Shown here one piece after another: positions 2,254-63,130 of a stretch of 64,000 nt of DNA; the stretch's first letter is position 1, and each line of letters starts with the position of its first letter. A model generated the notes under the pieces. That model searched no databases. It had not been told where the DNA came from and saw only the letters and a list, made by a program, of their open reading frames with translations. The position numbers and the translations under genes are program-made. The stretch comes from Octopus vulgaris (lineage: Eukaryota), in assembly GCA_951406725.2 (NCBI GenBank), contig OX597817.1:84506001-84570000 (forward strand). Reading direction: 5' to 3'.

Positions 2254-2614
2254 ATCTTCCAATACTATCTGGCGTACATGTGAAATATCATTTTTAATCT
2301 CTTCCTCTATCCTTTTTAAAAAGAGTTCATCATAGATTGAGTGTAGCTCCTATGTATCGTTAAAAAAACACGAGAAAAAGCATCCTAACAAAGTCTAATT
2401 TCAGAAACGTAGATACTTTAAGTGAGATAGGTCCTAATTAACAATTAGATCTTGGATATTTTTAATAATGAAATTAGAAAATCTGCGAACCTATTTTATT
2501 CAAAAGAGCACACATCACTTATGGTTTCATGAACACCAAAACTAAAAAAAAACTATATACATTATTTACATTAATTACATTTGACGGATATTTGTCCTCA
2601 TCTTGTTTGTTGTT

Positions 2615-2660
2615 AACGCAACGTTTCGGCTGATATACCCTCCAGCCTTCAACAGGTGCC
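2615..2660 (-). ncRNA. Minimal type I hammerhead ribozyme, core-mutated copy (CUGUUGA)
   Basis: Minus strand GGCAC CTGTTGA A GGCTG-gagggtatat-CAGCC GAAA CGTT GCGTT. Confidence 0.55.
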
Positions 2661-2775
2661 TTGGGGAAATTTCGAACCTGGGTTCTCATTCCAAAGGTAT
2701 TTTTTCGATGTTGTTATTATTATTATTAATATTATTATTATTATTATTATTATTATCATTATTAATATTATTATT

Positions 2776-3330
2776 GAGTGAGAGAGTAGTGCATGCCATC
2801 AAAGTGACACTGGCGTAAAATATACGAAGCCCAGTATACCCATCATGACTACTCGTCTGATAAGGGTACACCAGACACATGCATCACAACCATATGTGCG
2901 TAACATGGTGATCTCATATCAGGATAAACAGCGCATGACCTTGCAGGTGGGGCCAAGTTAGAATTTTCTTCAGGTCGAGTAACCCATCCCGCTCAAAAGG
3001 TCCCTGAATAAGGGTTGTTTAAGGATGTTGAACGAAACACCCATGTTTCCAAAGGTGAATTATCCAAACCTCTAAGAATTCCTTTCAACACTCGGTTATG
3101 ATACTCCCCCACTACTTCTGCGCGTGATCAGAGATGCACATATTGTCGCCACCAAGGGACATGCTCAACTGGTTAAGGTCAAACAACTGACAAGCAAATA
3201 TGTAGTATTGAGCAGAATATTTGCTGTAGCCCATCTTTTATATTAAGACAAAACAATATACATGATAACACTTCCAATCAGTTAAGATCAGAAGCCATGA
3301 GAGCCACTGTCTGGTACTGCATCAGGGCAT
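2776..3330. mobile_element. Unclassified ~555-bp interspersed repeat inserted in a (TAT)n tract
   Basis: Higher-GC block bounded on both sides by (TAT)n; absent from the mirror arm. Confidence 0.5.
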
Positions 3331-3470
3331 TTATTATTATTATTTATTATTATTATCATCATCATCATCATTATTATTATTATTATTATTATTATTATTA
3401 TTATTATTATTATTATCATTATTATTATTATTATTATTATTATTATTATTATTATTATTATTATTATTAT

Positions 3471-3611
3471 TCAGGTCACTGCCTGGAATCGAACTCGGAA
3501 TCTTGAGATTAGTAGTCCGCGCTCTTAATCACTACGCCATATGCCCGTAGTGGTTAAGAGCGCAGTCTACTAACCCCAAGATTCCGAGTTCGATTCCAGA
3601 CACTGTCCTGA
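3471..3611. repeat. Imperfect palindrome of two tRNA-derived heads (Pol III A/B boxes)
   Basis: CGTAGTGGTTAAGAGCGC...GAGTTCGATTCC on + from 3546, and the same head on - starting at 3546 (GGGCATATGGCGTAGTG...). Confidence 0.8.
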
Positions 3612-3635
3612 ATAATAATAATAATAATAATAATA

Positions 3636-58773: not shown

Positions 58774-58920
58774 TATATATATATACATATATATATATAT
58801 CACAATCAAGGAACGGCCATAATAGGCCATTCACCCACTAGAAATAACAGCCAAAAGCTTTACCGCAAAATAACATTAATTCCGTAAACCAGGAGAAAAT
58901 TAAAAAACATTTACCCTGTA

Positions 58921-59027
58921 ATTTCTTAGACGATGCACCGTTTCATCTACCGTTTAATGGTAAACTAACCTGATTAAATTAAATCAAGCCAATCCACCAT
59001 AGGCCCTTAGACTCATCAGTAAGAAAT
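58921..59027 (-). ncRNA. Type I hammerhead ribozyme, intact
   Basis: Reverse complement of 59557-59663. Confidence 0.85.
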
Positions 59028-59556
59028 AGCCAAGTCGGAACAGATATTTTTCACGAGGCATTCCTCTTGTTACCTCGGCAATATCTGACCTAAAATTTTC
59101 AAATCGTCGCACTCGCGCCAAATTTATCGGCAGCAAATAAATATAAGCCACCGATTCCATTACGGAACTAACCAGAAAATTCATAATTAATCAATATAGG
59201 GTGGCAAAAAAAATTTTGTAGAATTATTTTGCCACCAGCGGCCTAGTGGGAAAAATTAAATAGTTAAACCATTTTTAAGTTCAACATCACAATCAAGGAA
59301 CGGCCATAATAGGCCATTCACCCACTAGAAATAACAGCCAAAAGCTTGGTGGCAAAAGAATTCTACAAAATTTTTTTTGCCACCCTATATTGATTAATTA
59401 TGAATTTTCTGGTTAGTTCCGTAATGGAATCGGTGGCTTATATTTATTTGCTGCCGATAAATTTGGCGCGAGTGCGACGATTTGAAAATTTTAGGTCAGA
59501 TATTGCCGAGGTAACAAGAGGAATGCCTCGTGAAAAATATCTGTTCCGACTTGGCT

Positions 59557-59663
59557 ATTTCTTACTGATGAGTCTAAGGGCCTATGGTGGATTGGCTTGA
59601 TTTAATTTAATCAGGTTAGTTTACCATTAAACGGTAGATGAAACGGTGCATCGTCTAAGAAAT
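59557..59663 (+). ncRNA. Type I hammerhead ribozyme, intact core, GUC cleavage predicted after 59655
   Basis: Stem I ATTTCTTA/TAAGAAAT; CTGATGA 59565-59571; stem II GTCTA/TAGAT with long extension; GAAA 59640-59643; stem III CGG-TGCA-TCG; GTC. Confidence 0.88.
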
Positions 59664-62600
59664 TACAGGGTAAATGTTTTTTAATTTTCTCCTGGTTTAC
59701 GGAATTAATGTTATTTTGTGGTTAAAGCTTTTGGCTGTTATTTCTAGTGGGTGAATGGCCTATTATGGCCGTTCCTTGATTGTGATGTTGAACTTAAAAA
59801 TGGTTTATGACTATTTAATTTTTCCCACTAGGCCGCTGGTGGCAAAAGAATTCTACAAAATTTTTTTGCCACCCTATATTGATTAACATATATATATATA
59901 TGTATATACATATATATATACATATATGTATATGTATATACATATATATATACATATAGCCTTTCCCTAAGATAACACTGGTGGCGTGGAGAGGGAGGCC
60001 GGTATCCATGGGCAGTTGCTGGTCTTCCATAAACAACCTTGCCCGGACCTGTGCCTGGGAGGGTAACTTTCTAGGTGCAATCCCATGGTCAGTCATGACC
60101 GAAGGGAGGTCTCAGCATATACATATATATATATATATATATATATATATATATATATATATATATATATATATACCATTGATATAGGATGAAAAGTTTT
60201 TCAGAAAAATTTCATCAAAATGTGGCAGCATATTAAAATACCTTTAAAGGTTAAAATTATAAATAACTTATAAACAAGGGCAAAAGAAAAATTATTTCCA
60301 TGCCAATATGCTGGTAACAGACTTTAAATCGTCAATTTCCACATATCATTATACACTCACTTCCCCGATTTCAGCGCGCGCGTGTGTGTGTGTGTGTGTG
60401 TGTGTGTGTGGTTGTGTGTATGGGGTGTTAGTTGGTTAAATGAGTTTTCCAGGTAACAGTAATGAGAACATTCTACTAAGGATTTCTCATGTGCATGTGT
60501 ATATATATTTATATATATATACATATATACATTCTTTTTTGTACGTTTAGTTTAGGTAAGAATTTTTGGATAAAAAATAGTTCCATTCTCTTCCAGTGCT
60601 TTGCGTCATTCCTTGGGTATTTGTAGAATGGAAATATCTTGAATCAGCTGTCTCCATATATTACCAGACGCTTACTCACTTGCGTAATTCTTTTTGTCTC
60701 ATCTGTTTTCTCTGGATTCTTGTACATCAGTTTTGTTTCGCCAATAAAATGTTCCTTGCAACTGGAGCACGATATGTATTATATAAGATTCTGTTTCTTG
60801 CATTTCATGTCTGTCATATATATGCGTGCTTGCGTGTGTGTGTGTGTGTATGTATTTATATGTGTGCGTGTATTTATGTGTGTGTTTGTGTGTGTGTGTG
60901 TGCATGTGTGTGTATGCGTGTGTCTGTGTATAAGAAGTAAACCAATAAATCATTTGATGTTAAACGAACTTGGTTAACTACACCCAACAATTAGATACCA
61001 ATAAATGCAAGTAGAATTAACATCCAAGTATAGAGGGGTGCGTATGTGTATATGTGTGTATGTGTTTGTTCCCCACTACTACTTGGTGTTGGTGTGTTTG
61101 CGTCCCCTAAACTTGGCTGTTCATCAAAAGAGAGCGATAGAACAAGTACCAGGTTTTAAAAAAATTAAGTCTCGGAGTTGATTTATTCGACTACACCCTT
61201 CATGTTGGTGCCGCGGTCAAATGACTGAAACTAGTAAAAGATAAAAGATAAAGATATACCAGGTAACCGAAACCAGCATTATTGATTGCCTCTTCACAAT
61301 TTCCTCATATTCTGATGTTACTTATATGTTTTGATAATTTCTGGTAGCAGTTTTAAACCCTGTGCCTCGTAACCGGTGCAATTTTTTATTCACTTCCGCT
61401 TTATCAGTTACTCTCAATCTTGACAAGATTTAGCCATGTAGGGACTTTCTTGCCAATGACTTAATATGACATCATATAACTCCGTTTTCAGTATAGTTTT
61501 TCAGGTTTTTTAATGCAATAAACCAGTCATTGAACAGTCGGAAATCTTAAGATATATGTGAAAAGAATTATGTAGTTTCTGTTATTTCTGTATCCTCTTC
61601 ACAGCTATCTGTTACGTCATCCTTTGTTTTATAGTTATATATTTTTGAAATATAAAATAGCTTTTCACTTTATTCGTGTTTAAATTAGTTTCTTTTATTT
61701 CTCTTCACTGCATATCTTTGTATTCCTACAGTCGATATGTGTATAAATTTCTAATTGCAAACGAGTCCTGTTGGCTTTTAGTTGCTCTGTTGTAGATGCA
61801 ATCGTTATATTTGTTTTCCTTGTCCAGTCTTGCTACCTTGAATGTTGATATCTACCCTCTCATTTTTGTATTTAATTATTTTAAGTATTCATCTAATGAG
61901 TCAATAATTTTCTTAACCTTTTGTTTCATTTGTGTGCATTGTTGTGTCAAGCTTCTTAATTGCTAAGAAATTAAAAAGTTTGTACTTGGTCTAATTTTCT
62001 GATTTCCATTATTTTATTTAACACAATATTAGAGTACTTTTTAGTAATCTTATTCTCTTCAGTTTTGCCTGGCACATTTTTCTGAAGTGGGTTTCTCTTC
62101 AGATTAAAAAAACACACACAACTTTTTACAGATTCCTGCTCTTCTTTAAAAACATATTACTCTTTACAATGTCCCTTCTCTTCCTTACAAACATATAACC
62201 ATTTACGGTTTCCCTCCTTTTTTGACAAATATATTACCTTTTACAGCTCCCCTCCTCAACCGTACAAACTTATCATAAGTTGTGATGGTCATAATATGAT
62301 CCTTCACAACTCCCTTTCTCTTCTTTTTAAAGTGAGGTGTTCAGGAATGAGAGAGTAAGAGAAAGGAACAGCCTGTTTTTGGTAGGTTTCTTTGGAAAAC
62401 TTTTGGACATTGTATATACATGCATGTTTGTATGTGTATGCTTCATATATTCATAATACATACAAACATTTAACCAGTTTTGCATTAGAATATACACACA
62501 GACATACTGTCGTACTTGCAAGCTGTATCTTAACATTACTCTCCTATGTAAACGTTTGCTTCAGAGATTTTATTTGGAATTTGGTAAGAAATCAAGTATT

Positions 62601-63061
62601 CAGTTTTTCATTTCCTTCATTTAATTGCCCTTTCGTTTCTTTCATTAAAAATCAAAATGTTTTGTGTTATCGGGTATCCCGTAGTTTACTGTCTGAAATA
62701 CGAATTTGTCATCATAACATAATAAGCTACTCAAGTCACTGAGCGAATGCACAAAAGGTACGTAACTCTTTCATTTTCGACATTTTGTAGAATAGAAATT
62801 TCCGTTCCATCAGAAGTACAAATATAAAAAAAAACAATTCGTAAAATAGCAAAAATATAAAAGTTACGGGATACGGATTTGAAAAAGATGTATGTGCTTA
62901 TATGTAGTTGAGTAATGTTTCTATATCATATATATATATATATATATATATATATATATATATATATATATATAATATATATAATATATATATATATATA
63001 TATATATATATATGATATACAGATGACACAGGAAAAATAATGGCTATGTTATGAACTTATT

Positions 63062-63130
63062 AGCTTACAGCTGTTTCTGCTATAAGATGCAGTGGATTGC
63101 TAGTTGAGTGCATACAGCTTCATCGGAGCC
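63062..63130 (-). ncRNA. Degenerate minimal hammerhead (CCGAUGA) in a TA-flanked repeat
   Basis: GGCT CCGATGA A GCTGTATGCA...TGCATCTTATAGC A GAAA CAGCTG TA|AGCT. Confidence 0.55.

Follow-up and report, generated by a model that had tools for sequence, protein, structure and literature searches.

Minimal hammerhead ribozymes were described by Cervera and de la Pena (2014; PMC4209133) in the repeats (pLTRs) of Penelope-like elements (PLEs). Single motifs number in the thousands per genome there, pairs on opposite strands lie 100–700 bp apart, and a U3-A8 core and, in the supplement, mollusc examples are also reported. The same authors later defined the retrozymes not associated with long terminal repeats (non-LTR retrozymes), with RNAs of 170–400 nt and circles in mussel, and named PLEs as their likely mobilizer (PMC7229834, 2020). 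Such elements have been described in mussels, corals and frogs. Li, Clavereau and Pollet (2026; bioRxiv 10.64898/2026.07.22.740005) regard animal retrozymes as non-autonomous PLE derivatives with units of 51–972 bp, define active elements as tandems in which two or more units have complete hammerheads, and report cleavage of one of nine tested dimers; the link between retrozymes and PLEs rests there on co-occurrence and on homology in Xenopus. Inverted 5′ copies, 30–40-bp extensions and microsatellite targeting are PLE traits according to Craig et al. (2021; PMC8557442), in which the function of hammerheads in endonuclease-bearing PLEs is called ‘still unclear’. In Octopus vulgaris, 31 recently active Penelope-like families have been reported (PMC13282606), and the word ribozyme is absent from the sections of that source considered here; no hammerhead or retrozyme families were found described in the literature on octopus or cephalopods, and the supplements of earlier surveys could contain cephalopod examples. 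Here we describe a 64,000-nt stretch of the O. vulgaris genome (GCA_951406725.2, contig OX597817.1, positions 84,506,001–84,570,000 of the forward strand; hereafter the window) in which eight insertions carry ten type I hammerhead motifs, several in a decayed state. The protein-free units among them are likely to be non-autonomous, pLTR-derived elements of the retrozyme type, copied by the reverse transcriptase (RT) and GIY-YIG endonuclease of a PLE. The support for this reading is best for one family, D.

The window is AT-rich (28–45% GC), is crowded with microsatellites and dispersed repeats, and contains no tRNA genes according to ARAGORN. The type I skeleton (stem I, CUGANGA, stem II, GAAA, a short or palindromic stem III, UH, and stem I) was recognizable at all nine sites listed in an initial annotation of the sequence, with first core bases at 2655(−), 4046(+), 6269(−), 6668(−), 40091(+), 53019(+), 59019(−), 59565(+) and 63126(−). 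Only five of these (4046, 40091, 53019, 59019 and 59565) satisfy even the loosest form of the descriptor used here, the other four being damaged, and a tenth motif, at 11960(+), had been overlooked at first reading and satisfies the strict form. The CUGANGA/GAAA/UH core with three helices and stem I open is present in six of the ten motifs, i.e. in those five (53019 as U3-A8) and in 11960. The descriptor was modelled on the published minimal hammerhead at three stringencies and was fixed after the motifs had been seen; 300 dinucleotide shuffles in 400-nt blocks served as the null model. The window yielded 3, 5 and 7 matches against shuffle means (maxima) of 0.07 (2), 0.16 (2) and 1.37 (6), and the observed counts were attained in none of the 300 shuffles at any stringency, which bears out the expectation that the motifs exceed their frequency in shuffled sequence. 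Because the two D copies represent one event, the independent counts are 2, 4 and 6, compared with maxima of 2, 2 and 6, so that the first and the last no longer exceed the largest shuffle count. The initial annotation also placed most motifs near microsatellites. A short-period array is found no more than 150 nt from five of the ten cores (and from 21% of background positions), and D and F meet microsatellites via their 3′ ends; both cores of family B are 1.6–2.0 kb from the nearest one. Two further descriptor matches, 37296(+) and 40676(−), were treated as due to chance, the former being a probable false match. Separately, a doubtful hammerhead candidate at 28335–28400 (minus strand; descriptor match 28385) shows CUGAGGA, GAAA and a G-U-rich 12-nt palindrome, with stem I out of register.

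Family D is the clearest non-autonomous case. It consists of a minus arm (58799–59347, core 59019) and a plus arm (59347–59886, core 59565) that are joined head to head at 59347, are 99% complementary over 379 nt and both end 3′ in (TA)n. The plus arm comprises one 490-nt unit and 50 nt more, and the minus arm, which begins 378 nt into the unit (the position equal to 59725), wraps around and runs ~60 nt past its own start; the two arms are thus ~1.1-mers in different permutations of one 490-nt cycle. The hammerhead of the plus arm has an 8-bp stem I, a hairpin of ~40 nt on stem II and a 12-nt self-complementary stem III, with the predicted cut at 59655/59656. The stem II region (59582–59630) contains an 18-bp hairpin insertion, which is unusual in a type I motif. 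The unit has a GC content of 0.36, and its longest ATG-initiated open reading frame (ORF) measures 66 aa (66–68 aa in the tandem), leaving no room for an RT in the repeating unit. When folded as a circle, D is predicted to be far more stable than its shuffles (z −5.4), whereas all seven control stretches gave z values of −1.0 to +0.4.

Contigs from four (X1, X9, X15 and X17) of 23 listed sequencing runs were compared with D; no RNA run was listed for D. Such short contigs show neither distant arrays nor the ends, strand or level of RNAs; X15 is of unrecorded kind, and X1 and X9, only guessed to be RNA, were not used as evidence of expression. In X15, 7,366 contigs matched D and every bin was covered. 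The summed depth, mostly 1–8 × 10^5 compared with about 30–100 for most single joints, is itself no copy number and suggests that D is present in thousands of copies or more. The share of D pieces continuing into unlike sequence was 0 in X1, X15 and X17 and 0.07 in X9, and the closing point of the cycle is bridged by records 20 and 21 of X17. Among the 40 letter changes listed of 108 in D, none hits an invariant core base. The core varies at N7 (59569) and H17 (59655 C>A); in stem II, the changes 59576 A>G and, opposite to it, 59635 T>C are pair-keeping (unphased), and position 10.1 is mostly A and pairs with U. A GC>AT change in the middle of the stem III palindrome has equal depth in X1, X9 and X17. 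Core conservation together with pair-keeping stem changes, anticipated for the motifs in general, was found for D only, the other families having one or two copies each. Sixteen of the joints listed for X15 (37 in all) pass from minus-arm into plus-arm sequence, at varied positions, which makes head-to-head insertion a trait of the D family, and 14 X15 contigs terminate at unit position 59786 in (AT)n. After one near-duplicate had been dropped, six of 15 distinct joints (short sides of 21–28 letters) had their 5′ end 0–30 nt past the predicted cut (P = 0.006 under a uniform distribution, the interval having been chosen afterwards). This clustering of the 5′ ends of inverted insertions is a modest and new hint of cleavage in vivo.

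Families B and F, like D, are made up of a short non-coding unit of low GC content with one type I hammerhead. Family B (5981–6678, minus strand) is a partial tandem of ~1.75 units of ~400 nt with 89% similarity between repeats (the one tandem insertion given in the initial annotation) and two damaged hammerheads (cores 6668 and 6269); its ~403-nt unit has a GC content of 0.34 and no ATG ORF longer than 23 aa. Family F (11527–12480, plus strand; core 11960; 3′ end in (ACAT)n), also overlooked at first, matches D in its build, with a ~395-nt period, a ~140-nt terminal redundancy and a short inverted copy at its 5′ end, and is interrupted by another repeat at ~12136–12450. Its unit (~395 nt) has a GC content of 0.33 and a longest ATG ORF of 59 aa. 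Each insertion of families A, C and E is an isolated fragment shorter than a unit. The two copies of A, a ~175-nt piece at 2551–2727 (minus strand; damaged minimal hammerhead, core 2655) and one at 3974–4146 (plus strand; minimal hammerhead, core 4046), are 88% alike; they share a 5′ boundary at (AAT)n and (AAC)n, respectively, and differ in their 3′ ends. The hammerhead of the second copy has an unpaired A ahead of stem II, an ACGU palindrome and a predicted cut after 4081, and agrees with the minimal hammerhead consensus of the PMC4209133 supplement. Because 1.25 kb of other repeats lies between the two copies, the pair was not counted as an inverted dimer, and only one of the two inverted dimers claimed initially, D, stands; origin of the A pair in one inverted event is possible. 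No match to the pattern of family A was found in metagenome contigs. Family C (40064–40345, plus strand; core 40091) is a ~280-nt piece with its 5′ end at (TA)n, an approximate 3′ boundary and an imperfect stem II closing in its hammerhead, and family E (63020–63230, minus strand; damaged core 63126) is a ~200-nt piece between (TA)n tracts with an approximate 5′ boundary and a ACAGCUGU palindrome.

About 200 nt downstream of the ribozyme is common to B, C and D (z 11.3 for B1–C, 6.2 for C–D and 4.0 for B2–D), which places these three in one lineage, so that the initial estimate of about five families was too high. The best-kept part of this stretch is a 19-nt motif ending in UAUUUCWAG (6506(−), 6104(−), 40232(+) and 59729(+)), which in D lies ~40 nt ahead of the recurrent 3′ end; a GU-donor-like site is located upstream of it in B and D. 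The motif could be a cis signal for the mobilizing enzyme or a splice acceptor. A skip corresponding to a small intron with GT..AG-like ends was not seen among 15 of the 37 joints, all from X15. The single match to the B/C/D motif in viral contigs lay within apparently unrelated coding sequence and was rejected.

A 5′-truncated, frameshifted PLE is located at 51670–53101 (plus strand) between (TG)33 and (AT)26, where a Neptune-like relic had been proposed. It retains a relic of the linker and GIY-YIG endonuclease (~51770–52344), followed by ~750 nt of 3′ region. Four database proteins match its translation with 61–69% identity (tblastn E 1e-23 to 1e-30). Three of these score above the Pfam GIY-YIG cut-off; the relic piece itself has no Pfam GIY-YIG match. 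The CX4CxxC linker is invariant in all four homologues, and these keep the CCHH residues; in the relic, the first two Cys of the linker are retained, the third is replaced by Phe, and the C..C and two His of the endonuclease are discernible across frames. As judged from these residues, the relic would be the broken C-terminal piece of a Neptune/Nematis-type ORF, such a linker together with CCHH being the marks of these clades in PMC8557442; Neptune and Nematis are inseparable here because only the last ~200 codons survive and the RT core is gone. A hammerhead (53014–53051, plus strand) with UUGAAAA at 53019, a U3-A8 core and an AUCGAU palindrome lies ~670 nt past the end of the relic ORF and 83 nt ahead of (AT)26, and belongs to the element's own 3′ end. 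Beyond the (AT)26 tract, an inverted 17-nt copy of the last bases of the PLE is found at 53154–53170 (minus strand). The C-terminal GIY-YIG with CCHH residues, the CX2-5CxxC linker, the hammerhead near the 3′ end, the insertion in a microsatellite and the inverted copy all resemble described Neptune/Nematis elements (PMC8557442), from which the relic differs in its truncation and broken frame. Metagenome contigs contained one related locus, which at 35% identity was uninformative.

A second, more decayed PLE GIY-YIG fragment (60545–60814, minus strand; tblastn E ~1e-7), overlooked at first reading, is flanked by (CA)n and TA-rich tracts, and no hammerhead was seen behind it. A 112-codon open stretch at 41423–41755 (minus strand), which we take to resemble the RT thumb/linker region of a PLE, had no homologue among 180 candidates and no Pfam match. 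Directly past the mirrored 17-nt tail of the relic, there is an element at 53171–54340 with coding sequence (53248–53883, minus strand) for what is presumably a mariner-like transposase. A 249-nt part of this element recurs in inverted orientation at 56112–56360 with 99.6% identity, inside another element whose coding pieces, spread over 54600–56900, we assume to be gag-like.

The families described above share several features with the published min-HHRs of PLE repeats (PMC4209133): the unpaired base before stem II and the palindromic stem III of family A, the U3-A8 core of the relic motif, scattered single motifs and opposite-strand pairs a few hundred bases apart. They differ in that D, B and F repeat as ORF-less units and in that the motifs of D, F and the relic lack the G10.1-C11.1 pair. 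The likeness to animal non-LTR retrozymes extends to non-coding units with one type I hammerhead each, GC contents below 50%, monomers and partial dimers, a self-paired predicted circle (D only), co-occurrence with PLEs and proposed mobilization by them; units of 350–390 bp are known from mussel retrozymes. At 490 nt, D exceeds the 170–400 nt given in PMC7229834 and falls within the 51–972 bp of the 2026 preprint. Unlike the described elements, D is dispersed here, in the form of ~1.1-mers and of inverted pairs located in (TA)n, rather than forming a long array, and has a stem II hairpin insert and a 12-nt palindromic stem III.

Mobilization by a PLE in trans is suggested by the analogy of the head-to-head copies, the terminal redundancy and the (TA)n targets with PLE anatomy: inverted 5′ copies, terminal extensions and microsatellite targets as seen in D are described PLE marks (PMC8557442), and PLE relics are present in the same window as the non-coding families. 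In the model published for such elements, the hammerhead, likely acting as a dimer via the palindromic stem III, would process tandem or read-through transcripts into unit-length RNA, and a part of this RNA would become circular. A Neptune/Nematis-type enzyme would then nick a (TA)n-like tract and prime inside the unit; its synthesis would either continue a little past a full turn of the unit or stop by run-off where the RNA 5′ end had been cleaved. The inverted 5′ copy would arise from another priming event, and most copies would subsequently decay. This view, of non-autonomous RNAs using PLE enzymes in trans, is that of the initial annotation and is already in print as a general proposal. 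In the present data, non-autonomy holds for D and is likely for B and F, and it is open for A, C and E, which could equally be 5′-truncated ends of coding PLEs. The mobilizing partner is only inferred, because no non-coding family shares sequence or a tail with the relic.

Several observations weigh against this reading. As just noted, the tail of the relic has no sequence in common with any of the non-coding families, and an uncommon coding parent element bearing an identical terminal repeat may exist. Four of the ten motifs are damaged in the core or stems: 2655 by a CUGUUGA core and the loss of a stem I pair, 6269 by GAUA in place of GAAA, 6668 by mismatches in the closing pair of stem II and in stem III, and 63126 by a CCGAUGA core. 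In D, F and the relic motif, stem II is closed by A-U or G-U instead of the usual G10.1-C11.1. Among 133 Rfam matches in the whole window, nearly all of them to microRNA models on microsatellites, hammerheads were absent, and none was matched around 11960; a targeted 401-nt search of D with Hammerhead_1 gave 22 bits (E 0.006), below the gathering score of 34 for RF00163. The two D arms have their 3′ ends 131 and 231 nt past the predicted cut rather than at the cleavage site. The long tandem array that is the usual genomic form of non-LTR retrozymes does not occur in the window, where D and F reach 1.1–1.35 units and B, with both of its motifs damaged, 1.75. When folded as circles, B and F are no more stable than shuffles (z −0.1 and −0.8). 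Finally, the joint statistic draws on 16 of 37 joints with short sides and a post hoc interval, and hairpins near the ribozyme could be an alternative cause of the switching at D joints.

The main rival explanation holds that all or most of the pieces are 5′-truncated ends (solo pLTRs) of autonomous PLEs, the ribozymes of which served the parent element. The relic motif is exactly such a case, and PMC4209133 describes most min-HHRs as single, ‘probably related to truncated PLEs’, with inverted pairs 100–700 bp apart. The explanation may also hold for A, C and E, which are shorter than a unit and have no closing junction, the second A copy fitting the min-HHR consensus of PLE repeats in that source. 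In D, on the other hand, the cycle is closed at 490 nt, as seen in both arms and in X17 contigs, and no common branch leads elsewhere; B and F recur at ~400 nt with no ORF longer than 59 aa, so that as an account of the whole set the solo-pLTR explanation seems rather unlikely. Units without coding capacity that were copied in trans by PLE enzymes remain the preferred interpretation of these three families.

It is also conceivable, and in our judgement quite improbable, that the retrozymes are mobilized by a non-LTR element other than a PLE, for example one of Dong/R4-like or RTE-like type, clade names that we presume to apply to fragments in the window. Fragments with restriction-like endonuclease motifs are common there, and one of them has an (AAT)n(AAC)n tail at which the second A copy is located; PMC7229834 allows for ‘LINEs or PLEs’ (LINEs, long interspersed nuclear elements). 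PLE anatomy is matched by the inverted copies, with their head-to-head arrangement, and by the (TA)n targets, and in a self-comparison of the window no tail of D, B, C or F matched those fragments. The remaining alternative, that AT-rich DNA produced the motifs by chance and that the repeats arose by local duplication, draws on the 1.37 matches per shuffle (maximum 6) yielded by the loose descriptor, on the probable false match at 37296 and on the isolated motifs, which apart from D fold no better than shuffles. It is already largely refuted, since the shuffles never reached the observed counts and since D is found on thousands of contigs with its core spared among the variants listed, and it appears the least credible of all. 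Copying of ribozyme-bearing, protein-free units by PLE enzymes is accordingly retained for D and, with less assurance, for B and F.

Other hammerhead-like or inverted features were observed in the window. An abundant repeat resembling a short interspersed nuclear element (SINE) ends, at 8471(−), 57501(+) and 61216(+), in a 4-bp hairpin, GAAAC, two bases and GUA; this end resembles the distal half of a minimal hammerhead and is similar to the relic's motif, has no CUGANGA upstream, and is possibly a PLE-derived tail or due to chance. At 63270–63625, an inverted pair (63278–63321 and 63518–63561) lies between (TA)n and (TAT)n, and the 3′ half of a hammerhead (GAAA, the palindrome ACACGUGU, and UA) with no core upstream is found at ~63366–63385 (plus strand). 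An imperfect 92-nt palindrome with arms starting in a GCC-GAAA-like sequence is located at 38744–38835, and at 3447–3635, between (TTA)n and (AAT)n, perfectly nested inverted SINE-like heads form an 89% palindrome of 190 nt.

The class of element is already known, and the value of the locus rests in family D. A more far-reaching proposal, which we regard as possible and somewhat doubtful, is that D is a very high-copy dispersed retrozyme whose junctions record the RNA cycle, the permuted unit with 50–60 additional nt coming from a circular template and the head-to-head 5′ ends stopping at the hammerhead cut, and that the B, C and D families are branches of a single retrozyme lineage that has diversified and kept a cis element for the enzyme. 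If this is true, the thousands of D insertions would report directly on hammerhead cleavage in vivo as well as on how Penelope-type enzymes create terminal redundancy and inverted copies. The young, abundant 490-nt unit of D, with its PLE-type inverted insertions, offers a compact substrate for tests of cleavage, circularization and mobilization in trans.

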